64,000 nucleotides of DNA from Mayamaea pseudoterrestris (Eukaryota): positions 248,001 through 312,000 of the forward strand of contig BROI01000003.1 in assembly GCA_027923505.1 (NCBI GenBank), written 5' to 3'. This document shows, one piece after another, positions 6,053 to 51,269 of the stretch (the stretch's first letter is position 1; each line of letters begins with the position of its first letter). The translations under genes were made by a program, and so were the position numbers. The notes under the pieces are model-generated. The model searched no databases and was not told the DNA's origin. It saw only the letters and a list, made by a program, of their open reading frames with translations.

Positions 6053-6065
6053 CGAGTGAAAAGAC

Positions 6066-10910: not shown

Positions 10911-11050
10911 GCGCGGTAAGCGGCAACCGAAGGAGTGGATCGAGGACGATCACTTCTTGGAGAAAATAAGTAAAGTGGTTTTATTGACTCTGTTCTGCTT
11001 AATCATTAGTGTCGCTTCAAGGGCGCGCAAGATATATTCTAGATCCAACA
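10840..11050 (+). repeat. 3' LTR (211 bp)
   Basis: Identical to 5828-6038; contains the Pol stop codon (TAA 10908-10910). Confidence 0.97.
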
Positions 11051-19668: not shown

Positions 19669-20062
19669 TGGTACGACTCATGCGCGCTTCTTAACGCATT
19701 TTTCATATCTTTTTGTAGAATCGCTGGCAGCAATTGGTGATTTCAAGTGTTTCGCATGTATTTCGGGTGCTCTTGCGTGTGGCGCACGCCCTATATGAGT
19801 ATGACAACTTATTGGAGCCGTCCGGGGTAGAGGCGAACTCGGTTAGGTCAAAAAAAAACGTGCGGAAAAGGTTTGGGCATGGCTAATATGAGAATGGAAC
19901 GAAGCAAAGCAGATCCAGAACGCGTCAGATCAAACATGGAGCCTAAGGACAAGAGCGAGAAAGTAAATGGAGGCACCATGCTGTTGAATGTCTGGGAATG
20001 TCTGAGAAATCTGCTGGTTTATTTTAGCGAGCTGGTGTTTCATAGGGGCACGGAACTGACCG

Positions 20063-21490
20063 ATGAAAGCACGGAGCACTAGACCGTACGAAAAATGGAC
20101 TTGTATGCAGTGCATCATACAGCTGGAGGGTAGCAATGCGGGTGTGAGCGATGATAGGCTGACCAAAGACTACAAGCTGATCATTGACAAGAGCGATACA
20201 TTTACAAAACGATGTATCCGGCAAGCCGCGAGACTGTTGGACGCTAGCGGGGTTGAAACAAGTCCCGTAGCACTTTGTTCCGGACTGTCTTTCCTTGACA
20301 TTGTGATGTGTTGCTGGGCCATTGACCATTGTCGAGCCTCTAAGCGTGGTGCACAGCATGCTTTAGAGAGCATTGCACAAAACAATAAAATCGGGCAGCT
20401 ACAACAGCAGATATCTTTCCATGTGATTGTGGGGGGTTGTTGGGCCATTGACCATAGTCGAGTCTCCAAGCGTTATACACAGCATGCATTTAAGTGCATT
20501 GCTATCAAAGAAGAAATCGGGCAGCTCAAACTGCAGAATAAGCGGCAAGCCGCCAAGAATTCTCAGCTTACTTGGCAAAACCAGCAACTCGTGGAGCGAG
20601 GAGCGCAACAAGAAACTCATCGCGACACTGAGATTGGCCCGCAGCCGGCCAAATTGATTGCTGCTCATGAAGCCGAGTTGGTCGAATTGAACTTACGACT
20701 AAAACAACGTGACAATGCTTTGGCCGAGAGTGAAAACAAGCAGAACCGACTCACTGAGCAAAACGTGGATCTCACTCAACAAAATGTGGACCTCTCGCAA
20801 CTAAATTCGGACCTTAACAAGCAATTAGGCATGGAGCTTCTAAACAACAACAACGAAATTGCGCGACTCAAGCAGAAGCACTTAGCTGCTCTCCACCCTG
20901 AGCAGCATATGGTGACCTTGCAAGAAGCCGAGCAAGAATTTTTGTCCGATGAGGTTGCTGCGTTAAGGAACAATATTTCTGTACTTGCGGGGCACAGCTT
21001 ATCCCTTTTTAGTGAGATTATTGAGCACGACGGTGAAATTGGTCAGCATTTTTGGGGATTCGAGCACTTAGTCGAACAGGCAGCCAAGAAGGACTGTGCG
21101 AATAATTTGCTCAAGCAACGTCTAAACATGTTCACGCGGCGACTTAAAAAAAGCCAAGAACGGGCCGTCCAACATGCAGTTGAGGTCGAGGAGCTGAAAC
21201 GCGACCTAGACTTTTGTTTCGACGAGCTTGCCGATGAGACTTATGGTCATAGAAAGATGTTGTCTACAATAGTGGAGTGGATCTTGAGGCGTTGTCAAGA
21301 TCATGTCCATCGCTTGACGGATCTCGATAACGAGCTTGTTTCATTACAGAACAAGCTCAACAAGCGCATGAGTTTAACGCCAGTTAAACAAGCCAACGTG
21401 CAGCGCCAGGAAAAGAATCACGAAGATGGCGGGTCTATTGGTCGCGTTGGGGCTGTTGAAGCCAACCTTGCGAATGGAGTGCGAGTTTAG
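20063..21490 (+). CDS. Orphan coiled-coil protein with an internal 42-aa duplication
   Basis: 475-aa ORF with Q/E/L heptads (LTEQNVDLTQQNVDLSQLNSDL) and two CWAIDH..SKR..QHA..IA....IGQL units. Confidence 0.55.
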   Translation: MKARSTRPYEKWTCMQCIIQLEGSNAGVSDDRLTKDYKLIIDKSDTFTKRCIRQAARLLDASGVETSPVALCSGLSFLDIVMCCWAIDHCRASKRGAQHALESIAQNNKIGQLQQQISFHVIVGGCWAIDHSRVSKRYTQHAFKCIAIKEEIGQLKLQNKRQAAKNSQLTWQNQQLVERGAQQETHRDTEIGPQPAKLIAAHEAELVELNLRLKQRDNALAESENKQNRLTEQNVDLTQQNVDLSQLNSDLNKQLGMELLNNNNEIARLKQKHLAALHPEQHMVTLQEAEQEFLSDEVAALRNNISVLAGHSLSLFSEIIEHDGEIGQHFWGFEHLVEQAAKKDCANNLLKQRLNMFTRRLKKSQERAVQHAVEVEELKRDLDFCFDELADETYGHRKMLSTIVEWILRRCQDHVHRLTDLDNELVSLQNKLNKRMSLTPVKQANVQRQEKNHEDGGSIGRVGAVEANLANGVRV

Positions 21491-24400
21491 TGATTGCGAG
21501 GCTCCGCGCCACGACCGTGAGAAGTAGTGCAGTGGAGAGCAAGAACAGATTTCAGAGGACGACGCATTAGTGGTGGCTGCGTGACTTACTGTTAGCGAAG
21601 ATCACTAGGGGGCTATCTTTCACGCGCTACTTTTTAGGCTTGACATTGAGCCTTCACGAGGGGATGTCTTCGGGGATAGCATGTAGGTAGTTTATAAAAA
21701 AAATTGGCGTATCTTGCTTCGTACTTCGTTCCGTATACGATCGAGCGATGCGAGCTATCAACATAGTTTGTATCGAGGGACATAGCTGACTCATCAAGAC
21801 ACACTTTCACGAGCCGCAAGTCTTCGCGCAAATCAACCATTCTTTTAAACGCCTGTTCATTCCGCGGTCAAAGTACTTGTGTTGGTGCAAACTTGACATT
21901 GTGAAGTCGCCGGAGGAGCATCAAAAACTTGGCTTCATAGACATCATCTCTAAAAGGCAGCCAGAGCGCCTCGTGTCTCGTCCGGTCAACGCGACTACTG
22001 CGACCAAAAATCTTTCCACATGCATTAATCACACGTCCACTCATCCTCCGCCCATCAAGGTGCCCCACTTCCTATTTTCGTCTTGCCCGCAAGCTTTAGA
22101 AACAATGCGTCGCACCAACGACGGCATGTTAGTGCGGCCGCAGTGGTCTGCTCAACGAATGAAGACGAAATTCGCACAGTATAGTGCAGATCATTTGATT
22201 TTCGAATCTCTAACAAATGCGGGCAAGGTGGAACATAGTCAGTGACAGTAAAAGTTCAGTTCATTTCGGCGGTGCGGGTGAATCATGCAATGATTTAAAC
22301 TGGCGACCGAGCGACCTACAATCTAGTCTCTCTTCTTCGGCGAGCTAAAGTGCGAGCTGAAGGGCAAGGCCCTTGGCTGTTATTCGTGCAGTGACGGCGA
22401 TTTCAGCGGGTCTTACGTCGGCCATCTTGATTTTGTGTGCGCTCGAATTGGCCATGCGAAGAACAAGATCCTATCCATGTCGCATAGGTGTTAAATTTAA
22501 ACCGCTGCGACTTTTCACAAGATTGGCCTTGCATATCGGCCACAACGACCAGCAATGGCGTTTGCTGGTCGAGATGCAATGAGTTGTGACGTCCGTATGC
22601 CTATTGCACAATGAAGAATAACAGTTAGATATAAGTGGCTAAATGACGAGAGGGAACTGCAGCAGGCTGCCATGTTTATCCAGTTGAGATGTCCACATGC
22701 AGAAGCCAGTACGGAGGGACCACAGCAAGTCTAGCAAACATCGACAGAAGAGAGCGTTGAATAGAAAGCGAAGGTCATTGCACAACGTACAATTTGCACA
22801 TCCATATTGGTGGCTCGAGGCATGAAACTCTAGCTTTTGCATTCCGTGATGCTTTACGATTCTGTGGCTGTTGCCGATGCTTGCAAATCGCTGTCGTTTT
22901 TGGAGGCACGCTGCACGTCCGTTGCTTAACAGTCGCCGCAATCATCTCATCGCAATACATGGATGAAAGGTTTCTTCATTGCTGGACTGGTGTCGATTGG
23001 CAACGTTCTCCCCGGTCAGTGTCTTTTGGAACCAGCGGCAACGACCACTCCTTGCTCATTCACTGTTTGAGACACATCAATCAACATGTCTTTTCCGAAC
23101 AATTAATTCACGCGGCAATATACTTGTTTCATCACTTTATCTGGCACTAGCGCTCCGTCTGTCCCTCTGACTTTGCCGATATCTTGAGAAAGTGGCAACA
23201 CTCTAGTTCGTTGTGATTTGTTCGCCACTCACATTGGGCGTGCATTGCCTTGTCTCTAGATACGATCGTGACGGACGGCTCCGTCAACATGGCACGTTTG
23301 TCTGGTGCATTTTTTGCTTGAAACTTGGAGAGTGGGGCGTTTGGAATACAGCAGTCTACTTGCGACCCAAAGTAGCATGTCGTTCGCTTTGATGGCGCAT
23401 GTCAGCGGAGCGTTGGTGAAAAACCGACTTTATACGCCGTTTACCGGAGCTTGAAATGCTACATGGTGTCTGTAGACGACGTTGTCGTGTCACACGATAC
23501 AAAGCGCTGCATCCTTTGCTTGAAAAATAGTTCGGGCCAGCATCATCAGTGGTATCGGTTGGGCAGAACTATAGAAAAAAGTATTGAGGCTACACGAACA
23601 AATCAATCAGCAAGCAACAATCTGCCAGTCTCTTCATCTGCTCCGAGCTTCTGCTTTGGTTTTTCTGTTGATCCATTGTGGGTTTGCAAACGTCTCTAAC
23701 GTCTCGTATTTGTGGCTCGACTGGAGCCATTCATCGGCGTATAGGCGCGGCCAGCATACACGATGCAACCTGACTGAACAGTGGTGGAGATGACTTGTGT
23801 TCCAGTACATGCGATACTCTTGTGAGGGATATGATGAGGCCTCGCTCCTTAGAATGTCGGTCACTTTAACGCAGTGCCTTAGGTTTTGTCGCCATGAGGC
23901 AACCGTAGTTCTGCTCGGAAAGGTCTATGCCGTTGTGAAAGGATAGTCTGCTGATGTGTGCAGAGGCGGGTCGACCGATAGCTCTCTTAAACGAGTTTCA
24001 TAAGGCAGCAGTGTACTATACTTAGTTCAATGGAGTTGCGGCAGTAGCATGTCCTGTCCTTGCGTGCTCAAATTAGTCGCTATCAACGCCTGCGTGCGCA
24101 TGTGAGTTTCGATTGACAACTTTGCAACATGTTTTTGGAGAATCCTATAAGGTTGTGCTTGCTAGCTGATGGTCAACGCGGCAATATACTTGAACCTTTT
24201 AGCTCACTGTAAAGGTACAAACATTTCTGCTTATTTTCCTGCGGTACATGCCATGAGGCTCAGGATTTTGGTAAAATGAGCAACGTCTTTGCGTTGTTGT
24301 CGTCGCTAAATTTTGTGAGCATTGTGGCGAACGACGAATTGAGACCGTGTCCGATAAAGCTGCGGGCCGACTGCAATGTTGGCATGAGGTCTGGCACTAC

Positions 24401-26199
24401 GCATTCCGCTCGAAGGTTTTCTGCATTTCTTGAGCCGTTCCATCCTGAAATCAATCATCAATCAACCAGGTTCGGATCGCAGCCTGGGATTAGTCCGCAA
24501 TAGACAGCAATTCACACCGGCTTCAGTTGCATATCTAGCGGAGAAATGCACGCGAAAAATTACCATGCAGTTGTTTCCTCTTGCTCACAACTTGGTTGAT
24601 GTGTATTGAAGGCAGTTAATTCGGCTTGCCGAATATGCAGTTGCGAGTTGGACGATGCTTTGTGGTGTCCCATTTGCAACTGAGGATCATATAGTGGTTA
24701 ACGTCTATCCACGCCCTGGCTTGTGACACTTTTTTCGCGGCGAAGCTGATACCTGTTAAATATCGCAGCAGAGCTGCAGTGCTTGTTGTCCTCCGCTTTC
24801 ATCGACGCGCACGCCTTAGTAGCGATTAAGATCATAAGCACCACCAGCCTTCCGCATTCATGACGAGTTTCAGCTCAACGATTTGAAGCACCACGTATGC
24901 AATTGTCGTGCTTGCGCGACATGAATAAATTCTGCACACCCACCAGTTAACATGCTGCTTGATGCGGCAAAAGGATCAACGAGATCGATCCCATACTGAT
25001 AGATGTCGTCCCTTGGGTTTCGATTCTCTGCTACTAGAAGTCTGCTTCCCTGGTTCGCAGAGGACAATAGGACGATGTATGACCGACGCCGCTTTTGCAA
25101 AAAGATAATATGGCGAAGGATATTTGCCGACGCCCGCACTATCGCCATCTCAGCACCGAGTTTAATTCGCGCAGCAAAATACGAACCGACCTCGACATTC
25201 ACCGTCTCTAAAAGCATTAAGCGAGATCGCAAACCAATTGTCACTTCCAGTCACTTTCGCTGGCATGAAGTAGCGCAACGACGATGACAAGCAATTCACA
25301 ATTGACATGTAAAGTCCCCGAAACATGGCAGACTACCCACAGTACGTCGACCGACTGGCTAGAAATAGCTGGAGTAGAGTTGCAACATCGTTGCAACACT
25401 AAACACATTATGGCTTTGGGCCGCGAGAGAAGATTTTCTCCTTGAGACGCTACTTGCCAATATAGGCCGGCAGTGGTGTATCGCAGGACAAACGTCAGAT
25501 TCTGTTTTGGTTTTCTTTGGCTAGTTTCGTTGGAAAAATTTTATATGAGACTATTTAACGCGGCAATTATCTGTGAGCTGTCCCCGGTGCTTACAATACA
25601 CGCAAAATTTGAGTATCAACGCATTATGGTGATCATCTCTGGTCGGAGGAGTGCAAAGTGTTATCAGGCTCAGGAGCCATGGAATGCTGCAGCAATAAGT
25701 AATCTACACAGCCATCTCCAAGCATATCGTTTGCTACCTTTCGCACCGTCTGCTGTGAAATGGAGGGACGAATCGCCACGCAAGCATACTGCGGTAGCAT
25801 GTCTCTCGTACTGAATCACTGTTAAGGGCGTGTCGGCTTCACAGCGGAGCTGTTGGCTTATGCTAGACGCGTCTGCGACTTCTGCTGCCACCATCCCCCA
25901 AAGTATGTACTCGCAGTTCAGTGACTGATTCGCAATAAGATTCTGGCTCAAGAAAAATCCTTATATTTGGGAGCGTCCACTTGAGACAGCATGGTTGGCA
26001 CGCTCCTCGCTCGAGCTTGCGTGTCCATCTGTGCATATGCTGCGGCAACAGACGCTTGCTATTGTTGGCTCTCTTTTGTGGCAATCCGCGTCGGTGTAGC
26101 TGCAAATTACGAACGACTGCGTCGTCAGTGTATAGTGGCGCAACCTAGTTGACGTTGAACTTGGCTCGAGGGTCTCACAAACATGGCCGTGAACTACGC

Positions 26200-26505
26200 A
26201 CTCCCGGCTCATTATATTTAATCAGCCAGTTCACATTAAGGGAGTGGCAATCCATCATTCTGTTGTGCATAGCATGGCCAACACCTGCCGGTAGTGATGT
26301 CCGCCGCACTCGTCTAAAGGTTGGACACTTTTTAATGGGCAGCGATGACGAAACTCCCGGCTCATTATATTTTATCAGCCAGTCACAATTGGGATATTAT
26401 TCTCATCATTTTGTAGTGCATAGCTTTGCCAACACCTGCCGGTTGTGATTTTAGCCGCACTCGCTCAACGATTGGACCCTTTTTGACGGGCTGCGGCGAC
26501 GATAC
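26200..26505. repeat. Diverged 153-bp tandem duplication (2 units)
   Basis: actcccggctcattatattt.atcagccagt at 26200 and 26353; gccaacacctgccggt.gtgat and gccgcactcg in both units. Confidence 0.9.
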
Positions 26506-26769
26506 CGGCAACCCCACTGACAAAACTTATGGGCATCTGTAATATGTAATAGTTTACGATTCTTAGTCCAGAAGGAGCTGATGTGTTAGCTATGCATAGG
26601 AATGATAAGATTGGTGACCGAACGCGAATTGCGAAGAACGCGAACTCCATCGGATATTCATTATCGCCCCTTCCGTCCTTTCACGCGAGGTTGCAGCGGC
26701 GCATTGGATTTGAACCGTTTTGCTTTTCGTTTATCGACATTTACGTCGTCTCTCTCTTGTTGCTACAAA

Positions 26770-27655
26770 ATGATGAAGGCCTTAGCCATCCGTTTCGTTC
26801 TGAGCAGTCTGCTTGTCAGTTCCTGCTTGGGACCTACCGTGAGCCCGGAATCCAAGTCGCTAGAGGTACGAACTCTCAATGTTACCGCTTTGTCGTTTCC
26901 AGTGGGGTCGTTTCAACATTGCAACGTTTAAGCACTTGCAACGCAGCAAGTTATACTTGTCTCATGCTGCCATTTTATTTGTGTTTTTGCAGCTCGGCAT
27001 GGACCATGGCTTAGGCAGAGTCCATGACTTGTGTCATGTGGCCTCCGATGTTTCGGAAATGAAGAAACACTGCAAGTACACGTCCTCGCCCGTCGCGCAC
27101 CAACTACAAAGTGAATCGCCAATAGAGTCAGAGTATGCTCCGTCGCCTCAGCAGGGCTCTACGCCGACGATGCATGGAGGTTGCATGTACACAAGGATGG
27201 AGCTCATTGAAACAAGCTTCCCCGCTGATTGCCCGATCCCTGACGAACGCGCGGGCTGGCACGAAAGCACAATTCTCATTCTTGCGGCGATTCTAGCTGG
27301 CCGTGTATTCACGCTCCAGCGGGCGCTTGATGGCGCAATTAAACGACGTTGCGAGACTGAGCTTAATGCGGCTGCGATCGCCCAAAGCAAGATGGAACAT
27401 TACAGAGACGAGGAAATGCTTTTAAGTAAGTGTGCCATGACGATTGATCGTCTGCACAAGGATTTAAGTATCATGCAGAAGCAGATCATGCTCAATAAGA
27501 TGAAAGAACAGGCTCTAGGTAAAGCCGTCGCGGGAATCTACCAGCGTATCCAGATTGCTGCTGCTGCGGGAGTCGCGGTCGAGTGGACCGAATGGCGTGA
27601 GCCCCTTTTGGAAATGCTTGATTGTGCTGAAAGCCTTCTCGACGAGACAACGTAG
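26770..27655 (+). CDS. Hypothetical protein (signal peptide, TM, coiled coil); exons 26770-26865, 26993-27655
   Basis: MMKALAIRFVLSSLLVSSCLG exon joined in phase 0 by a GTACGA...TTTTGCAG intron to the 26879..27655 frame. Confidence 0.55.
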
Positions 27656-27780
27656 ACGTAAAGGCTTACAACCATTGCCAACGTGTATCTATAATTTCGA
27701 CACAAAAACTTTTCTTCTATTTTCATGAGCTTATAACATGCGTATCGTCGATTGGCCCTCATAAAATAAAGACGCATAAT

Positions 27781-30249
27781 TCAACGCTTTTTACGCTGTG
27801 AGTCTGTCAGGAAGGGATTTGCTTTCGTTTGCGGTGAAGGAAACGATGTCTCTGGGGGTAGTCCCAAGGCGCGGCAAGCGTTGTTGCACACATGAGTCGC
27901 AAAGAATGCTTTCATTCCCTTTTCACCAAGATCTGTTCGCCCAAACTTCAAATTCTGGAGAAACAGGTTTTTCTTGCGCGTGTGAACCGCTGGGTCCGTG
28001 AATATGAACTCCCGCCGGCCATCCGAATGAATCTTCAAAGAACCTTGTAGGTCGACCACTATAGATTGTCTATTGCTTTTGAGGTAGGAGAAGTGGCTAA
28101 AAGCTTGAGCAAAGTCACCATCAGGTATCACTTCGTCTGTCATAATTGGCGCGGCACAAACATGTTGTCCGTCTACTAGATGAGCAAAATAGTCCGTGCC
28201 TTCGCAGGAAAAAAATTGAGTCAGATTGGCGTCTTGCACAAACGCTTTGCCCCAACTGTCGTCATTCTGAGAGCTTTCTTCTTCCGACTGAGAAATTTCG
28301 TCATCCGATTCTTCCGCCACAGCCGCCAGCAATGGAGCAATTTTGCCTCCCATGTTCGTTTTTCGACCAACTTTGGATGCCATTGCCGCCTTGTTTACCC
28401 CATCTTCAGCAGAGGTGGCCTCAAAAAGGTCACCATAATTACCGTTATATTTTGTATACTCTCCGTCAATGAATGGCTCGACAAGAACATTGTAAGTCTT
28501 TGAGTCGTCGACAAGTTCAAATATGAGCGGCTCAAGGAAGCAAATCCGAGGAAAGGCATGCACGCGTTGCTGAACGTCTGCTGCGTTTCGTGCAGCTAAA
28601 TTATCGAAATACTCATTAAACTTATCCGCACATCGGGATGCGAAAACCTGCGCCGTCATGAATTGTATATGATCCCTGCGATTATGTTCGTCAGGACGAT
28701 CATGAACAAACCTTGACTCCTTTGCCACCATGACTGGCCCAATAAAATTGTCGTCATCATTGAGGAAACGAAACTTATAAGCGACGCGTTCCGCTCCTTC
28801 GCCAAAACATGCTCGCTTCCAAGCAACATTGTAAGATATAATGTCCTTCTTTTGCACAGCTCCTTTTCGCCGCTCCTCAAGCATAGCGCAACAATCCTCT
28901 TTTCGGTGTCCGCGCCACATACCGTCAGCAATGCATCCGCTGCATAGATACGTTGCTTTGCACCCATTACAGATTTCGCCCCTTGTCCCTGTCTCCCAGG
29001 CTTGATCAGCAACAAGCGAGAAACAGGAATGGCAACGACGGTCTAAAACTCGACAAAAGTCACCGTCTCTAGTATTCCATTTCCAAACATGCTTGGTGTA
29101 TTGACTGCTGTTTGAGGCACGAAAGACTCGCCAATCAATCGAGGGCACATGGTCATCAGGTGTGTCGCCGCGCTCCCGAAGAATATCGATGCGGACCGAC
29201 TTTCCTGGGGCCGTCTTTCCTCGCACGGTTTGCGAGAGTTCCCTCTTGGTTAACGCAAGCGTCGAAACATGATACGAAATAATTCGAGAAAGAGAATCTA
29301 CATCAAAGCTTGATGTGCATGATGGATGGTCAAACCAACCATTTGCTCCGTATGCTGCTGCTTCGTTGGCCATTTTGATTAAAACGCTGAAATCTTCATC
29401 TCGGTCTGCAAGGCCAACGCAGCCGAAAGTCAAGCGACGACCAAATTGAGATGCTATTTCCCCAACGGTCTTTACAATGTTGCTAGTCGCCCCTGCATCT
29501 GATGGTTTACCATCCGAGCAAAAAAAGACGGAGAGACCGACTGATCCCAAAGTGTTTAGTTGCAAGAGTTTTTGAACCTGTGTCAACGCAGGAAGGTAGT
29601 TTCCATGGCCTTCTGGCCGGAACTTCGACCATTCTTTCATGGCCACGAGCTTGTTATAAAGAGCCCAGGTCATTGGCTCATGCCGTATAGCAACCTTTGC
29701 TCGCTTGCCCATCAGCACGACGGAGACTATATCAAACCAGTTCTTTTCCTTGTCCAAGTGAGCTTTCACAAAGTCACGCGCGAGGCATGTCCATACTCCA
29801 TCAGACCGACAGCGGGCTCCATTTACATCGTCGGTTCGCATTGATCCGGACATGTCTACAACGAGAATGTGATGATTCGTCCATCGCTCCTTCTTCGACA
29901 ACGCATCAAAGTCCTCGTGACTGCGCAAATACTGTTCAGTGACGTGTTCCGTGTCCTTCATAACCATGACTGGATCGACAAACTTGGAACCAGACTTTGT
30001 GCCGCACTTGTCCTTGGTGGGGTAACAAGTTATAGCACGATTCGTTTCAGCGTCGTGCACATAATACGTTCCGCCGAAGGTGTACCCGACTCTGCCATTT
30101 TCAAGTGGTTCGGACAAGCCCATTCGTCTGGCTTTCTGACAAAGAACCTTGGCAATGTTACGTTCCTCACAGCGTTCTCGATGGTGTGACGTTGACACGA
30201 GTGTCGAGTTGGCGAGGGAATAGCTGTAGAATCGCTGGGTGCTTGTCAT
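27781..30249 (-). CDS. vWA-alpha-kinase (eEF2K/MHCK family) with an N-terminal DUF4258-like domain and a MYND-like Zn finger, copy A
   Basis: vWA ILVVDMSGSM..SDGKP; C2-C2-C-C-H-C finger; alpha-kinase FGEGAER, VAKE, VEPF..KYNGN, AFSHFSY, VVDLQG, FTDP, FG.TDLG..G..FF..H.CN..C. Confidence 0.9.
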   Translation of the reverse strand: MTSTQRFYSYSLANSTLVSTSHHRERCEERNIAKVLCQKARRMGLSEPLENGRVGYTFGGTYYVHDAETNRAITCYPTKDKCGTKSGSKFVDPVMVMKDTEHVTEQYLRSHEDFDALSKKERWTNHHILVVDMSGSMRTDDVNGARCRSDGVWTCLARDFVKAHLDKEKNWFDIVSVVLMGKRAKVAIRHEPMTWALYNKLVAMKEWSKFRPEGHGNYLPALTQVQKLLQLNTLGSVGLSVFFCSDGKPSDAGATSNIVKTVGEIASQFGRRLTFGCVGLADRDEDFSVLIKMANEAAAYGANGWFDHPSCTSSFDVDSLSRIISYHVSTLALTKRELSQTVRGKTAPGKSVRIDILRERGDTPDDHVPSIDWRVFRASNSSQYTKHVWKWNTRDGDFCRVLDRRCHSCFSLVADQAWETGTRGEICNGCKATYLCSGCIADGMWRGHRKEDCCAMLEERRKGAVQKKDIISYNVAWKRACFGEGAERVAYKFRFLNDDDNFIGPVMVAKESRFVHDRPDEHNRRDHIQFMTAQVFASRCADKFNEYFDNLAARNAADVQQRVHAFPRICFLEPLIFELVDDSKTYNVLVEPFIDGEYTKYNGNYGDLFEATSAEDGVNKAAMASKVGRKTNMGGKIAPLLAAVAEESDDEISQSEEESSQNDDSWGKAFVQDANLTQFFSCEGTDYFAHLVDGQHVCAAPIMTDEVIPDGDFAQAFSHFSYLKSNRQSIVVDLQGSLKIHSDGRREFIFTDPAVHTRKKNLFLQNLKFGRTDLGEKGMKAFFATHVCNNACRALGLPPETSFPSPQTKANPFLTDSQRKKR

Positions 30250-30770
30250 GCTGGTGGCGCTTGCACTGCTGATTGCTGTCTTGTATGATGGCTATGGAAC
30301 TGTGGTATGAAGGCTATCAGAGTTTTTTGCAGCAGAAACGTCGGCGATTGGAACGGTCATGTGCTGAGGCAAGTTTAGTCATCGCTCATGATTTATGATG
30401 CTCGTTGCTTTTTCTTCAAAGAAGAAACGGATCATATGTCGGACCGGTAATGCTCGAGTCGGTCCGTTACTCGTCATTTCAACGTTAGCGAAAGCGCTAC
30501 AAACCCAGCACCATCATCTTATGGTTGATCCATTTACTCGCGCACATGCAGTATACGACTATGACATCGTCATCGCAATACATATTAAAAGTAAAGGCAT
30601 CACTTTGGTATGCTTGCATGCGCGTTCTTCATAAAGAACGACCAAGCGCGCGAGAATCGACATCCAACAGCGCTGCATTGACCTATTCGTACCATATTTT
30701 CGATCACTTTGTTTGGTGTGCGCATAAGTTCTAACTTACTTATTAAGCTATCTATGCACACTGACATATC

Positions 30771-33206
30771 CTAAAAGCAAAAGAGTTCGTCCGGGGTCTG
30801 TCCCATCGCCGTCTCCGGAGTCAGACCGAATAGTTGACAAGCGCCGTTGCACACATGAGTTTCAAAAAAAGCTCTAATTCCCTTTTCACCAAGATTCGTT
30901 CGCCCGAATTTCATTCCTTGCAGTTGGGGGCTTTCTTTCCGTTTGTGAACAGCTGGATCGGTGAAGATGAACTCCCGGCGACCATCCGAATACTCTTTCA
31001 TCGAACCCTGCAGGTCGACCACCATAAACTGCTTCTTGCTAGTGTAATAAGAAAAGTGACTAAATGCATGGGCAAAATCTTCGACAGGAATGGCTTCATG
31101 GAGAAGAATCTGCGGCGCGCCAGCATATTGTTCACCAATGAGGTGGTCGAAGTACTCCGTGTTGTCGCCGGTCTTTCGTGCAGGCTTTGCTCCTTCGTTC
31201 CAATCGCCGTCGTCATCAGAATCTTCCTCTTCTTCTGATTCCTCCACCAAAGCAGCCAGCGGACGCGCATTTATCACCCCAATATTTGCCTTTCGTCCAA
31301 GCAAGGACTCTATCGCGGCTCGGCTCAATCCCGTATTGTCATCAGAGACCGGGGCCGCCTTGGCCACACCCCCGAAATTTCCGTTGTACTTTCTGTAGAC
31401 CCCTTCAATGAAAGGCTCAACAAGAATATTGTACATCTTTGAATTGACTGCATCGGCGAGTTCAAATATAAGTGGCCGCAGGAATCGAATTCGAGGAAAG
31501 TTGGTGAAGCGTTGCCTGAGTTGGGGGTTTTGCACCGCTAAACGATCCAACCAAGAATTGTATTCTTTGGCGCATCGTGAAGCCAAAGCCTGGGTTGTCA
31601 TGAACTGTAGATGGTAGCTGTGCCGATGACTCTTCAAATAAGAGGAAGCGTCTTTCGCCGTAGCAGCGGTGTCATCTTCGACAAACCTTGACTCTTTGGC
31701 AACCATTACAGGTCCCATAAACTCGTCATTTAGATTCAAATAGCGAAACTTATAGGCAGCCCGCTCTGCACCTTCTCCGAAACAAGTGCGTTTCCAGGCA
31801 ACGTTATAGGCAAGAATAGTTTCCTTTTGCACCAGGCCCTTCCTGCGTCTGTCTGCCATTAAGAGGCATTTGTCCTTTGGATGCCGCACACCAATAGCCA
31901 TGCACCGAGTACACAAATAAAGTGCCTTGCACCCCTTGCAAACTTTCCCTCGATTCCCAGTCTGCCAATCTTGATCAGCGACTACTTTGTAGCAGCCATT
32001 GCAGCGTCGGTCAATAACCAAACAAAAGTTACCGTCTCGATCGTTCCACTTCCAAATGTTTTTCGTATACTTTTCATCGCTCGAAGCACGAAAAATTCTC
32101 CAGTCATCCGTGGGATGTTGATCGTCGGGTGCGTCCACGCGTTCACGAACAATGTCAGTGCGAACTGTCTTTCCTTTGCCCGTTTTGGTCTCTGTCATTT
32201 CCGTCTTGGTCATTGTGAGTGACGAGACGTGGTGCGAAATGATATGCGAAAGCGAGTTCGCATCAAGCGATGGCCGGTTGAATGATGCAACGGCGCCAAA
32301 TGCAATTGCTTCGTCCACCATCTTTTTAAGGACGCTAAAATCCTCGTTGGGACTTGCCATGCCAACGCAGCAAAGTGAGAGTCGGCGCCCAAATTGAGAA
32401 GCTAGAGTTCCGACGGCGTCTACGATTTGTTTCGTAGACGATTGAGATTCAGATGGTCTGCCATCTGAGAAGAAAAAGACGGAAAGAGCGCAAGATCCCA
32501 AATCGTTTGCTCGCAAGAGAGAATGGACTTCTTTCAAGGCGGGGAGGTAAAAACCAGGCCCTTCAGGCTTCAAATTTGTCCACTCCCTCAAATCGACAAG
32601 CTTATTGTAAAGAACCCATGTCATCGGTTCGTGTCGAATGACAACAGTCGCCGTCTGGCGCATGACAACGATAGAAACCAAATCATACAACGTGGTCGTA
32701 TGCTGCTCCAACTGATTCTTGACAAACTCGCGAGCAAGACACGTCCAAACGCCATCAGACCGGCAACGAGCCCCATCTACATCATCTGTACGCATAGAAC
32801 CGGACATATCCACCACAAGAATCGTATGACTCTTCCATAGATTCTTCTTTGAGAGGGCAGACATGTGCATGAGCTCGTGGGCCCTTTCCAAATCAATTCC
32901 TTCATGGTCCGAGCTCTTTTCAATCATGACAGGATCGACAAATCGTGAACCAGAGCTAACGCCTTGCTTGTCCCTGCTTTCAAAACAAGTAATCGCCATG
33001 TTGCGTTGGGGATCGTAAATGAAAACCTTGCCCGACAAAGTGTACTTGATTCGGCCGCGACTGTTTCCTGGCTCTTGCATGCCAAATCGCCGCGCTCGCA
33101 GTAGGTCAGTCTTTTGAATCTGACGCTCCTCGCGACGTTGACGATCATGTAGCGTCGAAACGAGTTCCGATTGAGCAATGGAGTTGCTAACGACGCGGGC
33201 GCTCAT
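30771..33206 (-). CDS. vWA-alpha-kinase with an N-terminal DUF4258-like domain and a MYND-like Zn finger, copy B
   Basis: Collinear paralogue of copy A with all alpha-kinase motifs intact. Confidence 0.9.
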   Translation of the reverse strand: MSARVVSNSIAQSELVSTLHDRQRREERQIQKTDLLRARRFGMQEPGNSRGRIKYTLSGKVFIYDPQRNMAITCFESRDKQGVSSGSRFVDPVMIEKSSDHEGIDLERAHELMHMSALSKKNLWKSHTILVVDMSGSMRTDDVDGARCRSDGVWTCLAREFVKNQLEQHTTTLYDLVSIVVMRQTATVVIRHEPMTWVLYNKLVDLREWTNLKPEGPGFYLPALKEVHSLLRANDLGSCALSVFFFSDGRPSESQSSTKQIVDAVGTLASQFGRRLSLCCVGMASPNEDFSVLKKMVDEAIAFGAVASFNRPSLDANSLSHIISHHVSSLTMTKTEMTETKTGKGKTVRTDIVRERVDAPDDQHPTDDWRIFRASSDEKYTKNIWKWNDRDGNFCLVIDRRCNGCYKVVADQDWQTGNRGKVCKGCKALYLCTRCMAIGVRHPKDKCLLMADRRRKGLVQKETILAYNVAWKRTCFGEGAERAAYKFRYLNLNDEFMGPVMVAKESRFVEDDTAATAKDASSYLKSHRHSYHLQFMTTQALASRCAKEYNSWLDRLAVQNPQLRQRFTNFPRIRFLRPLIFELADAVNSKMYNILVEPFIEGVYRKYNGNFGGVAKAAPVSDDNTGLSRAAIESLLGRKANIGVINARPLAALVEESEEEEDSDDDGDWNEGAKPARKTGDNTEYFDHLIGEQYAGAPQILLHEAIPVEDFAHAFSHFSYYTSKKQFMVVDLQGSMKEYSDGRREFIFTDPAVHKRKESPQLQGMKFGRTNLGEKGIRAFFETHVCNGACQLFGLTPETAMGQTPDELFCF

Positions 33207-33580
33207 GATCCGATGTGTATTTTATTTGCGGTATCAGCTACGATAAATCGCTCCTTGTACTTGCTGAATTAAATAGTCGCAAAGACGCAGCAACAAGGCG
33301 TCTAGAAATTTTGAATATAACAGAGACGTCTAGTCAATAAAGACTTCTAGTTACAGTATAGCGCAGTGATCAGTCGTTCTCCAAGTTTTCTTGTTACGGT
33401 TGGCGACGAAAACGGCCACGATCCTTTGACATTCAACACCATCTCTTTCACGGCAGGTGGCCATGGTTCGCTGGATTGGCGATATGTCTTACCGGTTTTT
33501 AAGCGTCGGACCGGTACTGGACAAGACCAAGCCGCGCTCCACCATGGAACATTCGACTATCTTTGAGGCCGATACACACC

Positions 33581-34882
33581 ATGACATCTTCATCTCTACT
33601 GGTTTGCCGACTATACAGATCAATACTAAAGGCGTCAAAGCCATTTTGCGACAAAAACTCGCTCACTCAGGCCAAAGTCCTGACATGTTTACTGCATCGA
33701 ACTGGACGAGAGGATGAGAGTTGGGCGAGCTTCTTGAGGGAAACGTCAGACGACGACAATGAATATTCATCCGACGAAGACGAACAAATGAAGGAACCTC
33801 AGAGAGTTTTGTTTCGAAATTTGCTGCGTGAAGTTGTAGCTGGTTCATCGATACGGCAAATGCAGTGGCCCGTCTCGGTTGATGTGTCGTTGCTTGATTC
33901 CGTCATTCGACGCGAGTTTCGAGGCTCGAGCGAGTCAAAATCAGCTCAACACCCGCTAGCAACAAGACAAGCACTTGCATTCATGACTTTGGCGGCTTTG
34001 AACCAAAAGCTGGCCTGGTACGAAGCTCTCCGCGCCAAGGCACCGTTAGTCAGGCCCCAACAAGGGGCTGCCTACGTTTCACCTCTCCCACTGTCGCCGC
34101 CATCCTCCTACCTTCGACCTGGCGCTTATTTGATTGCACATCCACACATGACTGGCTACTTTCGACGGACAGTAATCTCTATATTGGATCACAAGGCCGA
34201 GCATGACAGCCCGGCCGGCTCGTATGGAACCTATGGTCTCATTGTCAATCGAACCCGCCTTTCGCCTCAAACACACAAGGGTTTGACGCTGGAGGAAGTC
34301 CTGCGACCGCTACCTCACGATTTGGTGACATCCTTTGGCGGATCTACTGTCAGAGAAGGCGGCCCCGTGCACATGAGCCTGCAAATGCTTCATTCATTGA
34401 CTCCCGATCAGGAGGAACTTCGCATTGGAGGCAGTCCAATTTCCATGATTGGTAGTGATAAAGGTGACGATCAGCAAGCTGACCAATCTACCGTGACTTC
34501 TGCTCAGCGCTCCGATCGTGCCATTTACTACAAGGGCGACGTTTTGACGGCTGCCAATGCCGTCCTATCGGGTCGCTTGGATAGGGAGGATGTATCGTTC
34601 TTTGTTGGGGCATCGGCCTGGCAACCAGGCCAGCTGGACAGTGAAGTGGAACGCGGATTTTGGATGCCGGTCAGTGGTCCACCTGAGATTGCTCACTCCG
34701 GATCGTGCGAGCACGACTATGTCACTCCCGAAGGTGAAGCAAGGCCTCTGGCGGATCTGTGGTTAAGCATGCTCTCGGCGTGCGGACCGGCGGAAGCAGA
34801 GCTTGCGCATTTGATGTCAGTCGACGACGGAGAGAGCGAACTGGGAATGGCATGTGATGATGATGATGATTATGACTATTAG
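33581..34882 (+). CDS. DUF179 / AlgH-YqgE (UPF0301) domain protein
   Basis: GAYLIAHP..YFRRTVI..DH..YGLIVNR..EGGPV..FFVGASAWQPGQLDSEVERGFW. Confidence 0.85.
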   Translation: MTSSSLLVCRLYRSILKASKPFCDKNSLTQAKVLTCLLHRTGREDESWASFLRETSDDDNEYSSDEDEQMKEPQRVLFRNLLREVVAGSSIRQMQWPVSVDVSLLDSVIRREFRGSSESKSAQHPLATRQALAFMTLAALNQKLAWYEALRAKAPLVRPQQGAAYVSPLPLSPPSSYLRPGAYLIAHPHMTGYFRRTVISILDHKAEHDSPAGSYGTYGLIVNRTRLSPQTHKGLTLEEVLRPLPHDLVTSFGGSTVREGGPVHMSLQMLHSLTPDQEELRIGGSPISMIGSDKGDDQQADQSTVTSAQRSDRAIYYKGDVLTAANAVLSGRLDREDVSFFVGASAWQPGQLDSEVERGFWMPVSGPPEIAHSGSCEHDYVTPEGEARPLADLWLSMLSACGPAEAELAHLMSVDDGESELGMACDDDDDYDY

Positions 34883-35083
34883 CACTTTCTATAGCGTGCT
34901 TGTCCGCGTGGCCTGCATCTTCACATGAAAGGAACCTCATCATCATCTGCAAATCCATCTCACCGGTTCTCACGAGACCTCGTCCTAGGTTCGCATCGAA
35001 CGAGACGACGATGATCCAACGTGATGCGTCCATGCGGATACAAGAAGTGATCCGGCGAACCAGTTCCATCTCGCACCAGTATA

Positions 35084-37445
35084 ATGCAGTCTACTAAAAG
35101 TGAAGATATGACGGCGATGGTGATGCAAGATACCAATGGAGACTATGAGCTTGAGCTTGATCATAACCTGAACGATTCGTCGTCGTCGGCCGCCGCTGCA
35201 CATCGCAATCAACATTATGTGTCTGGCGTGGAGCAAATTGAACGTATAGAGGAAGGTTATGTCCAAAAGGAAACACAAAAGCGCTTTAATGATCCATCCG
35301 AAGCCTTTTCTACTCCATCTCAGGACGGACATTCGCTTGAATGGACGAACATCTCCATGACAACGATTCCACCGAAAGCCAAGGTTGACGGCCGACGCAT
35401 TCTTGAAAATGTATGGGGACGATGCCCGAGTGGAAAGGTGACAGCAGTAATGGGGCCGTCTGGTAGTGGAAAGACATCGTTGTTGAACGTTTTGTCGGGT
35501 CGCATGACGAGCAAAAGGACCAAAAGCGTCACCATTGATACCAAGAACAACATTCTTTGGAATAACTACTTGGTGGATCCAGCGTCCATATACTTCCGCA
35601 AGACGATTGCTTTTGTTGCGCAGGATGATTCGCTTTTAGATACTGGTGCGTGCAGTTCTGTGAGTGATGGCTGTTACGCGCTATTTAATCATTAATTATC
35701 CACTCACCTTCTTATACTTGCGAAACGCATAGCTACACCGCGCGAAGCAATCGCTTTCTCGGCCAAACTGCGTCTTCCTAAAACTACTACTGAAACGCAA
35801 ATCAAAGCAATTGTTACCGGCATGCTTCATGAGCTTAATTTACTTGACTGCGCAGACACCATGGTTGGAGGTGCCCTTGTCAAGGGCCTCAGCGGAGGCG
35901 AGCGCAAGCGAACAAGCGTGGGCGTTGAGCTTGTCACACGGCCTCGCATCATTTTTATGGATGAACCAACAAGCGGCCTCGACTCGTTTAATGCATTGGA
36001 ACTGATACAAGTTTTGCGCAAGGTCGCCAAGACAGGATCGTCCGTTTTGCTGACGATTCATCAGCCATCGTCGCAAATCTTCTCCGCCATTGATCGACTA
36101 ATCTTACTCAAAGCTGGACGAGTCATGTACGGTGGTCTCGTGAAGAATGTTCCACGATATTTTGCCAAGCGAGGTCATCCGATTCCTGAGCACCATAACC
36201 CGGCTGATGAAATTATTTTTATTGCACAGACCCAGTCGGTCGAGACATTGGAACGCCAAGGCTTTTTCCATCGTCCGCCTGAGAATCCAAATGCTCCGAC
36301 AACAGGATTGGAAGATAACGACGATGCCCGGCGGTCCATCAAGAGCGCAGCAATGATTAACAAGCCAGGCTTTTTTGTCCAAGTGAAGCTCCTATTCCAA
36401 CGTGAGTTGCGCCACTTGGTGCGAAACAAGAAAGGGCTTCAAGCTCGAACGGGAATGACCCTTGTCGTGTCACTGCTGGGTGGTGCCATTTACTGGCAAG
36501 TTGCCGATTCGGACTTTTCGAACTTTATCAATGTTCAGAGCACTTTTGGAGGGCTTTTGCTTTCGTTGCTGGCCAATGTTTTCTCCGTGGCGTTGCCGTC
36601 GTTGATCTCCTTTGCTACAGAACGACCTGGTGCGTATAATTTTGGCAAGGGCTCCTGTGGGAATAGCATTTACTTTGACTAACCCGATCTCCGGTCGATT
36701 TTGCAGTTTTTGTCCGCGAGTACTCGACAAATCATTATCAAACAAGTTCTTATTTCCTCGCGGTAGGTTCAGTCAGTCCTTTCCATGTTTTATACATTTT
36801 TGGTAGCTTACATTGGGTTCTTTCGTTGTTGCAGCGATTCGTGACAGAGTTTCTAGTCACTGCCGGTCAAGTCATACTCAGCTCCATGCTGACATATACA
36901 ATGATGGGATTGAACGCTCGCTTTGGCGTCATCTGGGCCAGCCAGTACTTGCTTGCGTTGACGAGTACAGCTCTTGCCGTGCTTGTGGGTGCGACTGCCT
37001 CTGAGCCATCGCTGGCGATTGAGGTGAGTTGCCTATGAATACAGCTTTCTCGCGTCGCGGTCATGATGCACGGCAACTCACTTTGCTGTTGTCGCAGTTC
37101 GTTCCGCTTATATTTATGCCACAAATTCTGTTTGCAGGATTCTTTGTTCCACCAACTTTGATCCCAGTCTGGCTTCGATGGCTTACCTATGTTTTTCCTC
37201 TTGCGTATGCGACGAAAATTGTGCTTGTGGCCGAGTTTGATGGAGCTTGCGACGGCTTCGAGACGACTCAATCGAATCCAGACGGATCTACTACATCAAT
37301 CAACTACTGTGACCGAATCCTTTTAAACACGCAAGCTTACCCAGAAGATGTATGGTGGTATTGGCTGATCATTTGCGCGCAGTTTGTATTTTTCCGGCTT
37401 CTGGCTCTGTTCATGCTGCAAAAGAAGGCGTCAAAATTTTACTAA
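35084..37445 (+). CDS. ABCG (white-like) half transporter; introns 35646-35732, 36630-36706, 36763-36834, 37024-37097
   Basis: Walker A GPSGSGKT, FVAQDD, LSGGERKR, MDEPTSGLDS, TIHQPS; NBD-TMD order; ERP|VFVREY; frame-preserving GT-AG introns. Confidence 0.95.
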
Positions 37446-37686
37446 GTATTGCACACATTATATTGCACGCATTAAATTACTGAGTAGATTGACTATGAGA
37501 TGCTGCATGTGAAGTTCTCTCATCTAACAAGGCTCCCTGGGTCAGCGCGCATTAGCTAACGGTGCTTCGCGGTCTGACGTCGGTCCGGTACTGTCACACA
37601 TTCTTTGACGACGAAGACGATGCTGCAATCTGCAATACTACCAAGCCCCCACACATTCAATGGAAGCTTGATGCTATGATTAAACG

Positions 37687-48611: not shown

Positions 48612-51269
48612 TTATCTACCCTTGTTGCTTCTGTCAACAGAGTCATCGGATGCCATTTCAAGGACACCGGATTCAATATCAAAGGGTTGCTCCACAATGG
48701 CTTCCGCCGAATCTAAGAGACCCGTCGAGCCAGAATCCCTCTCAAAGTGGCTAGAAGGTCCCAAGTCGCTGCTCCCATGCTCATCAGAGTTTGAAACGGT
48801 CGCATTTTCGTACAAGGGAAGTGCTTGTATCTGACCATGATTGTCCGCAAGTTGTGGATTGAATAATGTTTCGGCACTCATGATACGTCGCATTCCAAAT
48901 CGTTGGAAAAAATTAATGCCAGAGCTCTTGCGAAGCACCTTGTGGGGCGATGCCGGATCCTTCTTGATGTGCTCTGCTGTTGAGTCCCTCCCTTGTTCAT
49001 GCTGCGCGTCGCTCAACGAATCTTGAATGCTCGAGTCGTCAGATCCATTCTTGATTTTGCGTCGCAGTAAGTCGTGTTCTATCTCAATGTGCAAATTCAA
49101 AAGCTCTTCCTCCTTGCGATGCTTGAGTCTTGCCTTTCTCCTCTCCAGCGCCCGCCGCCGATCCTCCTCCTGATCTAACGACTCCTGCCAGTAGCCATAC
49201 ATTTCTGCGCCCAAGTAGTTCTTTGGCGACCACTCGAGCGTCTTCATGAAACGCTTAAAGTGAAAGGCAACTTGTGACGGTTGCGCATGTAAATCAAAAC
49301 CCAAAGCTGCAAAGACTCCCCATTCGGCGTCAAAAAGCTGCTTCAAACCAATTTCCCATTCTTGCGTAAAAAATTCCAGCAGCGACGCAAACATGGTGCT
49401 GCCTCGATTGTTCGGTCTGACGAATGAAGTGAATCGATTAGCTTTACCTTCTCCGTCATGATTGATCCCGGCTTCAGGCACTTGCATGACCAAGCTAACA
49501 TTTGGTTCATTTAGCTTGGACGCAAGTAGTAAACAAGCTGCAAACGCGAGCCGTCGATTTGACTTGTCTACTCGACAGTCAAGACAGAGTCTTTCAAAGT
49601 TAACACATGCCAACGACACGGTGCCAATCTCAATGTTAGCCTTGACAGCAACCTGCAAGGCTTGGTGCTTCAACGATCGAATCTTGGACAAGGTCAATGA
49701 TGGTGGCATGCGAACTTGCTTCTCAGTAGGCAGCTTCTCACTGTGAGTGTTGTTTGCAGTTGGATCCGACGAAAGTGACGATGCCGTCGATGATTGCCGC
49801 TTCCTAGTTTTTATTGGCGTTGCCATACTCTCCTTTTCTTCCTCATCTTCATCCTGTATAGGTTCCGTCAGCACATAATTCCCGTTGATAACTCGAGCTC
49901 CAATGTATTTAAGCGCAGACTTGGATGGTTCCCACCCATCAAAGCGCTCCCGAAATTGCTTGTTCAAATCGGCCTTTAACAAAGCAGGCTCAACAAATTG
50001 AATCGTTGAAGCAATAATGGGTCCAATCACACGGTCTCCCACCATGACGTTGCGATGTCGCCCCAGCACCATGTCTGGATCGTCCAGTATACCAGGGACA
50101 TAGACATCCGAATCTTCGCTGCTCAATGATGTATCATCATCGTCATAATCATTCTCACTGTCATCTTCATTGTCTCCATTTTTGCGCAAAACAAAGCGAT
50201 TAAAAGCTCCATGGTGCTTTTCGTGCTCCTTGTACTCTTTGCGCGGCAACAAACTTCGATAGGAAATTCCGCGCCAGTCGCCTCGCGAAGGAATGCGAAA
50301 CTCTGATCCACCCCCTCCGCAAGCTTCGAGTTTGAGGCGGCGCAGTTGAGCTTCCTCTCGCTTCGGCTCATATCGAACAATGCTCATGAGACTAACTGGG
50401 TAGCTGCCACTGGCACTGAAAAACAAGCGTCCGTCCAGTAAAGGAGGTTGGTAATCGCGTACTGACGAGCTCGAGGTATTAGCTGGTGTCTTGGACACTG
50501 CACCACTACTTGCAACAGTCGTTTTGACAGTTCCACCATGTGCCGTCTGTTTCTCCCACTCCCTCAAAGCCGCCATGCGGGCAATGGTTCGCTGCTTGGT
50601 CAGGGAACTGGTGGTGACCGGCACGCTGATGCGAATGGCATCGTCTCCTTCCAAACGTCGGCCAGGAGTGTACGTGAGACTGCTCGGCTGTATCTTGTCG
50701 CGGCGAGTAGGTCCTTCCAATAGCAAATGCTGCTGAATGGATGTTTCTGATGAATTGTGGTGACTACTGTTACTGGGATTGTTGTTATAGTGTCTGCCAT
50801 GACGCTGCAATAGACTGCCAGTGATCCACTTTTCCCACCACTTTCCTTGAAAGTCTCCTGGTTTCAAAATAGATGCTTGTCGATTATGTTCTTGCTTACT
50901 TCGCGAGCGAGCTAGTATTCGATGGTCGCTGCTGCGGTGATTGTTTTCGTCGCTGCTGCTTGTGCTTTCGTATTCCTCCTGCTGCTTGGTTTGCTGCAAA
51001 TAACCGTCGCGGACAATCTTAGCTTCGGCTTGCAGCGGGATATTTAACAAAAAGTCTAGAGCAGCAATATCTCTCGTGACCCATTTGTTTTCGGCAACTC
51101 GATAGAGGCGCTTGTTGGCTTGTGGGGGTTGCTGTTGAGTGATGCTCGATGTCGGCGCAGCGACGAATGGCAATGCATGACGGCTATTCGAGCTAATACT
51201 AATATTGCGGTCGTCTAGTGTATCATCTGCTGGATGATGATCAAGTATTACAGCTTCTGGAACATCCAT
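48612..51269 (-). CDS. CABLES-like cyclin-fold protein
   Basis: LDDPD...GRHR, LKADLNKQFRERF, SLTLSKIRSLK, TVSLA.V.FERL, KSNRRL...ACLLLASK. Confidence 0.85.
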   Translation of the reverse strand: MDVPEAVILDHHPADDTLDDRNISISSNSRHALPFVAAPTSSITQQQPPQANKRLYRVAENKWVTRDIAALDFLLNIPLQAEAKIVRDGYLQQTKQQEEYESTSSSDENNHRSSDHRILARSRSKQEHNRQASILKPGDFQGKWWEKWITGSLLQRHGRHYNNNPSNSSHHNSSETSIQQHLLLEGPTRRDKIQPSSLTYTPGRRLEGDDAIRISVPVTTSSLTKQRTIARMAALREWEKQTAHGGTVKTTVASSGAVSKTPANTSSSSVRDYQPPLLDGRLFFSASGSYPVSLMSIVRYEPKREEAQLRRLKLEACGGGGSEFRIPSRGDWRGISYRSLLPRKEYKEHEKHHGAFNRFVLRKNGDNEDDSENDYDDDDTSLSSEDSDVYVPGILDDPDMVLGRHRNVMVGDRVIGPIIASTIQFVEPALLKADLNKQFRERFDGWEPSKSALKYIGARVINGNYVLTEPIQDEDEEEKESMATPIKTRKRQSSTASSLSSDPTANNTHSEKLPTEKQVRMPPSLTLSKIRSLKHQALQVAVKANIEIGTVSLACVNFERLCLDCRVDKSNRRLAFAACLLLASKLNEPNVSLVMQVPEAGINHDGEGKANRFTSFVRPNNRGSTMFASLLEFFTQEWEIGLKQLFDAEWGVFAALGFDLHAQPSQVAFHFKRFMKTLEWSPKNYLGAEMYGYWQESLDQEEDRRRALERRKARLKHRKEEELLNLHIEIEHDLLRRKIKNGSDDSSIQDSLSDAQHEQGRDSTAEHIKKDPASPHKVLRKSSGINFFQRFGMRRIMSAETLFNPQLADNHGQIQALPLYENATVSNSDEHGSSDLGPSSHFERDSGSTGLLDSAEAIVEQPFDIESGVLEMASDDSVDRSNKGR

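Follow-up and report, generated by a model that had tools for sequence, protein, structure and literature searches.

A tandem pair of intronless diatom genes joins a predicted toxin-type RNase fold to a vWA domain and an alpha-kinase in a multicopy algal family

The DNA analysed here, called the window throughout, is a 64,000-nucleotide stretch of Mayamaea pseudoterrestris contig BROI01000003.1 (assembly GCA_027923505.1, positions 248,001 to 312,000), part of a 30.6-Mb genome in 41 contigs. It carries two genes, P0001 and P0002, arranged head to tail with a gap of 521 bp, each of which is one uninterrupted open frame. In each, a single chain joins an N-terminal BECR-fold domain of the DUF4258/Ntox49 type (the module), a von Willebrand factor A (vWA) domain and an intact alpha-kinase, and the family to which they belong is multicopy across algae. 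The features are as follows.

30771-33206, minus strand: gene P0002, 811 aa; BECR-type module, vWA and alpha-kinase with an inserted finger; of the two, the nearer to the family consensus
32973-33167, minus strand: P0002 N-module, residues 14-78; two helices followed by four strands; His20, Arg22, Arg24, Arg25, Arg28, Lys32, Gly42, Thr73
32187-32843, minus strand: P0002 vWA domain, residues 122-340; Asp133-x-Ser135-x-Ser137 and Asp248
31866-32003, minus strand: P0002 finger, probably MYND-derived, from Cys402 to Cys447; contains seven Cys plus one His and lies within the kinase N-lobe
30816-32102, minus strand: P0002 alpha-kinase, residues 369-797; Arg482, Lys504, Glu597, Asp731, Gln733, Asp750; Zn site His717/His784/Cys786/Cys790
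27781-30249, minus strand: gene P0001, 822 aa; an old tandem duplicate whose N-module has selectively diverged
30016-30204, minus strand: P0001 N-module, residues 16-78; retains His22, Arg24, Arg26, Arg30, Lys34, Gly44, Thr74
29215-29883, minus strand: P0001 vWA domain, about residues 123-345
28891-29034, minus strand: P0001 finger, Cys406 to Cys453
27853-29133, minus strand: P0001 alpha-kinase, about residues 373-799; catalytic and Zn residues intact

The two proteins are 55% identical across 821 alignment columns. A first-pass annotation, made from the sequence alone, had described them as collinear intronless paralogues, and the motifs that it quoted from their N-termini are found in both. 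Four sequencing runs from one study, none of them recorded as RNA, were compared with positions 24000-37500. In the gene adjoining the pair, contigs of two runs, X2 and X4, pass over four GT..AG introns and therefore hold spliced transcripts; these contigs span parts of both P0001 and P0002 and contain no spliced joint inside either open reading frame (ORF). This supports the intronless structure, and the same contigs give weak support to the expression of both genes. Some P0001 pieces from the transcript runs differ at many positions and could derive from another allele or copy.

The C-terminal body is that of an alpha-kinase preceded by a vWA domain, with intact catalytic and Zn motifs in both proteins, as first described. 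Pfam Alpha_kinase (PF02816) matches at E 1e-37 and 7e-38 (130-131 bits against a cut-off of 21.3). In an AlphaFold2 whole-chain model built with 73 homologues (predicted local distance difference test score, pLDDT, 87; predicted template-modelling score, pTM, 0.85), the kinase matches MHCK-A by Foldseek (E 2e-11) and aligns with 4kuj, 3lkm and 1ia9 at Z 18.0-18.7. Both proteins retain Lys504, Asp731, Gln733 and Asp750 together with the zinc ligands His717, His784, Cys786 and Cys790 (P0002 numbering), both Asp motifs align with those of MHCK-A, and the kinase residues are invariant in 73/73 or 72/73 homologues. The P0002 kinase also carries a disordered acidic insert at about 613-704. Pfam VWA_2 falls below its cut-off in both proteins (E 3e-5 and 2e-4), and the vWA fold is matched at Z about 20, with an rmsd (root-mean-square deviation) of 2.2-2.6 over 184-187 residues. 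A complete vWA metal site consists of DxSxS, a Thr and an Asp; DxSxS and Asp248 are present in 73/73 homologues, and the position taken as the metal-site Thr is Asn in 45 of them and Phe in P0002.

The Cys/His finger, initially called MYND-like, is probably MYND-derived: zf-MYND (PF01753) matches 9 of 20 family fingers, one of them above the cut-off, and one distant relative has a clear MYND at the finger position (E 2e-6), while the P0001 and P0002 fingers themselves match no zinc-finger family. The order of seven Cys and one His is that of a MYND finger, with each Cys kept in 65-72 of the 73 homologues, but the third pair is C-x2-C rather than C-x3-C and the whole sits within a kinase. Its first placement, between the vWA domain and the kinase, can be refined. 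Structural alignment to three alpha-kinases begins at residues 368-370, ahead of the finger at 402-447, which is therefore an insertion in the kinase N-lobe. It is an accessory part, found for the most part in a single diatom clade, and not the core of the architecture.

The identity of the module is less apparent from domain databases, as Pfam has no match in the first 80 residues of P0001 or P0002. Modelled alone (pLDDT 89), it forms helices at 8-17 and 21-30 followed by strands at 32-35, 42-46, 49-54 and 59-65, the Colicin-like BECR topology of pre-helix, helix and four-stranded meander as defined in the available part of a recent classification (10.64898/2026.08.28.747851). When the model was compared with 48,161 solved chains, 30 reached Z>=5, and 29 of these are titled contact-dependent inhibition (CDI) toxins, colicins or toxin-antitoxin toxins. 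The best matches are CdiA-CT NC101 (5i4q; Z 7.8, rmsd 2.5, 69 aligned residues) and a Salmonella toxin (Z 7.8), followed by BrnT (3u97; Z 7.5), colicin E5 (3ao9; Z 7.0) and colicin D (Z 5.8), but the sequence identity to CdiA-CT NC101, BrnT and the two colicins is only 6-14%. A comparison with predicted viral structures gave three matches better than E 0.001, and the sole named one is a phage protein annotated as DUF4258 (template-modelling score, TM, 0.85; rmsd 1.9; E 7.5e-4). The fifth-ranked viral match, BFVD entry A0A481YYZ3, is a 963-aa giant-virus "putative hemagglutinin" with a stretch of the module fold (TM 0.78, E 2e-3). A search of the ESM Atlas, which serves as a lead only, gave a best score of 0.85 and a DUF4258 cluster at 0.82.

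Sequence comparisons point in the same direction. The DUF4258 profile (PF14076) weakly matches 18 of 42 excised family modules (best E 2e-4) and 16 of 68 distant full-length relatives at E<=0.01; among the matches listed, it is found in none of 60 close full-length homologues. When the entire 30.6-Mb genome was searched blind for DUF4258, a single candidate scored, located in the module of a distant paralogue. Five columns (His, Arg, Arg, Gly, Thr) are invariant in 42/42 modules, and a profile comparison with the phage protein (E 3e-4, probability 41%) places His/Arg/Arg/Asp/Ala/Gly in register; the phage protein has an Ile-Thr near its end that matches the module Thr. NCBIfam, PHROGs and PADLOC gave nothing better than E 0.017 on the 42 modules, with no family in more than four members, and a PDB sequence search with the module profile gave 0 matches. 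From the profile matches, the fold match and the residues held in common with the phage protein, the module, judged by sequence and model, is a homologue of DUF4258/Ntox49, though without Pfam membership by score. The two share fold, topology and the His/Arg/Arg/Gly/Thr pattern. The algal module differs in falling below the Pfam cut-off, in having further conserved basic residues (Arg22, Arg25 and Lys32) beyond those of the phage protein, in standing at the N-terminus of a eukaryotic kinase and not as a small toxin or a toxin's C-terminal tip, and in having no immunity or antitoxin gene found beside it. The first-pass annotation had proposed a DUF4258-type, RNase-like domain with a RelE/BrnT-like fold. 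The DUF4258 likeness and the BECR toxin-RNase fold both hold; the current classification has DUF4258 in the Colicin-like branch and not in the RelE-like one.

The module also resembles Colicin-like enzymes at the positions where these cut RNA. In the portion of the classification available (10.64898/2026.08.28.747851), DUF4258 is placed with Ntox49 in the Colicin-like BECR group, the site of which is formed by the pre-helix and the last strand, with a His and a nearby Lys/Arg, and the tested members of which cut mostly tRNA. An earlier survey (Zhang et al. 2012, PMC3482391, likewise available in part) describes a conserved Ser/Thr in strand 4 of Colicin-like enzymes and lists Ntox49 with a conserved H and K/R and with a presence in stramenopiles and viridiplantae. 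The module matches this pattern in 42/42 cases, with a His and two Arg on the first helix and a Thr on the last strand. In a set picked by the module profile, and hence partly circular, the His is present in 100% of 341 distinct rows, three Arg in 99-100% and the Thr in 97% of 352; in the set from a whole-protein search, the His is kept in 73/73 and the Thr in 72/73. The residues of a Colicin-like cutting pocket thus appear, from alignment, to be nearly invariant.

Several points weigh against reading the module as an active member of this group. No solved chain reaches Z 8, a level that the tool calls common even for unrelated models, and the fold evidence therefore lies in the uniform list of toxin entries and not in one score; in Foldseek on the PDB these folds again rank first, with no E better than 0.1. 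No family member attains the Pfam DUF4258 cut-off of 25 bits (best full-length member, 21.3), although the DUF4258-annotated phage protein is also below it, at 17.3. KOW4_SPT5 matches 9/42 modules with a best E of 6e-4, similar to that of DUF4258; a KOW/SH3 identity was rejected, as the model shows a pair of helices and its matches are BECR folds. The accessible text of PMC11980606 gives DUF4258 no demonstrated activity and calls it undescribed. The NC101 toxin builds its site from another residue set, Arg200 and His248 near the C-terminus, and catalytic residues vary among BECR enzymes (PMC5737660, PMC9086364, in the parts available); because they differ among the CdiA-CT, BrnT and colicin members, substrate and mechanism are not transferable to the module. 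Finally, the mean pairwise identity of the module across algal supergroups is 70%, which by sequence suits a domesticated part better than an effector in an arms race.

A vWA domain ahead of a C-terminal alpha-kinase is already known from Dictyostelium VwkA and from ciliates, fungi and oomycetes; in the available portions of the two sources, no RNase-like module is described for these kinases (PMC2827801, PMC3019232). The proteins here differ further in carrying the finger and the acidic insert inside the kinase. It could be argued that they are nevertheless ordinary VwkA-like kinases, engaged in cytoskeletal, vacuolar or osmotic control, with the module as a structural or protein-binding cap whose toxin likeness is a relic. 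Besides the shared layout, the database names of family members, which refer to the kinase or vWA only (for example 'myosin heavy chain kinase' or 'eEF2 kinase'), favour such a view, and the whole-chain pTM suggests that the domains may be packed together. We consider it very improbable, since the conserved module positions are polar His, Arg and Thr at known pocket positions rather than a hydrophobic interface, and they are shared with a stand-alone phage protein.

The combination of module, vWA and alpha-kinase is widely distributed. At E<=0.001, the module profile matches 1,001 clusters (50% identity); in the best 150 of these, a vWA domain follows the module in 105, and the remaining 45, of 83-318 aa, are short and for the most part resemble fragments. 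The kinase C-lobe is reached in 43 of the same best 150, and the diatom finger profile matches only 7 of those 43. A search with a distant member gave a consistent picture, with at least part of the module in 113 of 120 proteins and the other 7 beginning at or just before the vWA domain. Besides diatoms, hosts of the three-domain core are green, brown, haptophyte, cryptophyte, dinoflagellate and chlorarachniophyte algae. Among the hosts named for the family are numerous diatoms, Choristocarpus, Chrysophaeum, Prymnesium, Guillardia, Hemiselmis, Polarella, Bigelowiella, Mesostigma, Cymbomonas, Pseudoscourfieldia and Volvocales, with two genes (CHLRE_03g156650 and CHLRE_01g040950) in Chlamydomonas reinhardtii. 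All named hosts are algae, most matches being without a host name, and the named close homologues of the window genes are all from diatoms. The idea of a diatom module, as first put forward, is thus too narrow: the three-domain core is spread over algae of several supergroups, and only the four-domain form lies in a diatom-only clade. Single relatives (P0149, P0240, P0255, P0369) carry added OST-HTH/LOTUS, two ubiquitin domains, RING or CCCH fingers. As possible stand-alone module proteins, 27 short matches to the module profile were considered, and the 11 inspected look like fragments of family genes. No close relatives were found in viral contigs, GTDB genomes, plasmids or phages, by searches that detect close relatives only.

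Within the Mayamaea genome, eight loci have this layout: P0001, P0002, a near copy of P0001, two on contig C12 and one each on C21, C25 and C5. The architecture is therefore not single-copy, either within the genome or across algae. The near copy of P0001, on C3, has many small indels at its 5' end and may be an assembly artefact or an allele; it is not counted as a proven third gene, and the summed sequencing depth gives no copy number. The surrounding segment, 24209-30512, is repeated at C3:233000-239340 (6.3 kb, 95% identity, 40 kb away), as a segmental duplication or an unmerged haplotype. The two C12 members (L025:2923-4866 and L026:2647-4590) are near-identical and lie in a 7.7-kb duplication at 98%; in their 648-codon open frame the catalytic motifs of the kinase are gone, together with part of the vWA metal site, but the finger is kept and the module is intact. 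The C25 member (L028:4113-4172 region) is interrupted early in the vWA domain by an apparent 60-nt GT..AG intron.

In a FastTree tree of 43 rows, P0001 and P0002 are sisters within a clade (support 100) whose 14 rows are all from diatoms, and duplicates throughout the family cluster by lineage, with lineage-local copies in Mesostigma, Cymbomonas, Chlamydomonas, Gonium and the Mayamaea genome; as the tree is unrooted and has no outgroup, we claim no direction of transfer. The duplication that gave rise to P0001 and P0002 is old, because synonymous sites between them are saturated. Across 73 close homologues, pairwise identity averages 57% in the module, 56% in the vWA domain, 50-53% in the kinase and 30% in the finger, and among 15 sequences from different algal groups the vWA domain (52%) and kinase (46-63%) fall below the value given above for the module. 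This high identity indicates that the module is under strong constraint. Between P0001 and P0002, amino-acid change is nevertheless 0.52 in the module against 0.20-0.27 in the vWA and kinase domains; the excess arises because the P0001 module has diverged, departing at 9 of 27 conserved positions, the most of the 73 homologues (median 1), while still keeping its His, three Arg, Lys and Thr. The diversification first proposed is thus borne out for the P0001 module only, the module being among the most conserved parts across the family.

Neighbouring genes were compared for the window, 6 stretches from its own genome and 69 metagenome loci, many with short flanks, and no neighbour ORF is common to distant loci. 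Since no separate neighbour gene recurs, there is no sign of an immunity gene, and the adjacent antitoxin or immunity gene by which toxin-antitoxin and polymorphic-toxin systems are recognised was not seen at the compared loci.

A further reading is that of an active RNase with a routine role in RNA processing or quality control, such as tRNA or ribosome turnover linked to nutrients, that is regulated by the kinase and has no part in defence. Strong purifying selection, the coverage of both window genes by contigs of two runs with spliced transcripts, and the RNA-binding add-ons in single relatives (OST-HTH/LOTUS and CCCH fingers) are all compatible with such a role. Core RNA processing, however, does not typically go with recurrent duplication within lineages, a pseudokinase copy or a fast-changing module, and the named hosts are all algae. 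We hold this explanation to be improbable.

Our preferred reading, which we put at slightly less than an even chance, is that these proteins would be a self-contained algal RNase-kinase switch, regulated in cis, acting on translation and released by stress or infection. The module would be a putative metal-independent endoribonuclease, most likely acting on tRNA or another RNA of translation, as the characterised Colicin-like enzymes do. With no separate immunity gene, the vWA-kinase body would keep it off in cis until a signal of stress or infection, received at the vWA site or through (auto)phosphorylation, freed it to slow translation. The diatom finger and the domains added in relatives (RING, ubiquitin, CCCH and LOTUS) may act as exchangeable adaptors.

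The main rival treats the module as an input instead. Its RNase fold would have been domesticated to bind RNA ends, tRNA, a 2',3'-cyclic nucleotide or a phosphorylated residue but not to cut, and in so doing would switch on or dock the alpha-kinase for translation control of the eEF2-kinase kind. That the module is more alike across supergroups than the kinase lobes (70% versus 46-63%), that its extra basic residues are absent from the phage protein's set, that the flanks hold no conserved partner gene, that the kinase residues are invariant, and that the module nearly always stands ahead of a vWA domain would all fit such a sensor. It explains less well why the catalytic-type His and Thr are as invariant as the arginines, and the C12 copies keep the module after losing their kinase motifs, with no kinase left to switch. 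We think it possible, if unlikely.

If the module does cut RNA, a broader proposal may be made, which we regard as doubtful: that algae of several supergroups have in common an unrecognised innate stress or anti-infection pathway in which a domesticated bacterial colicin-type tRNase, held under a vWA alpha-kinase, would shut off translation, with the kinase-dead and fast-changing paralogues as regulators or alternative specificities. This would be an independently built counterpart of IRE1 and RNase L, in which an RNase and a kinase or pseudokinase occupy one chain. The logic is the same, but those proteins pair a conventional kinase with a C-terminal, all-helical KEN RNase, whereas here an alpha-kinase follows an N-terminal BECR fold; the comparison is one of analogy only, not homology.

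The remainder of the window is described for context. The pair was thought to lie at the edge of an orphan-rich zone, and this fits only loosely: on one side, the four ORFs scanned at 16.4-27.7 kb have no Pfam match better than E 0.05, but the genes on the other side are ordinary (DUF179, MatE). Two ORFs without a Pfam family, at 20060-21490 (476 aa, with a 124-nt internal repeat) and 26879-27655 (258 aa), are coiled-coil-like; the latter is convergent with P0001 and ends 125 bp from its stop. Identical 213-nt direct repeats beginning TG (5826-6038 and 10838-11050) bound a probable young long terminal repeat retrotransposon at 5826-11050, with several ORFs between them, one with a CCHC zinc knuckle. 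Two further ORFs, at 48612-51326 and 58905-60128, have cyclin N-terminal domains, one of them in a 904-codon frame.

The window genes belong to a large and apparently undescribed algal kinase family that is present in Chlamydomonas. Individual parts of it have been reported: vWA alpha-kinases are known (PMC2827801, PMC3019232), and Ntox49 was listed in algae in 2012, in the accessible text without an architecture (PMC3482391). Diatom alpha-kinases are said to be without vWA in the available part of PMC3019232, and the present family was therefore missed there. The first-pass annotation knew of no description of the four-domain architecture, and we likewise found none of the module-vWA-alpha-kinase fusion in the literature searched, which left out most subscription journals; nor did 'alpha-kinase' with 'BECR', or either Chlamydomonas gene identifier, retrieve a paper there.

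Little is known of the ways in which algae halt translation or deliberately die when attacked by viruses or stressed. If the module cuts RNA, a toxin-type RNase fold fixed in a kinase family spread over so many algal groups would be a direct candidate for such a translation stop or death, and would give DUF4258 its first function. The system is tractable, with a module of 65 residues, one obvious His to mutate and two members in Chlamydomonas reinhardtii. Even if it does not cut, no part of this large kinase family is more conserved than the module, whereas the labels in databases refer to the kinase and vWA domains alone.

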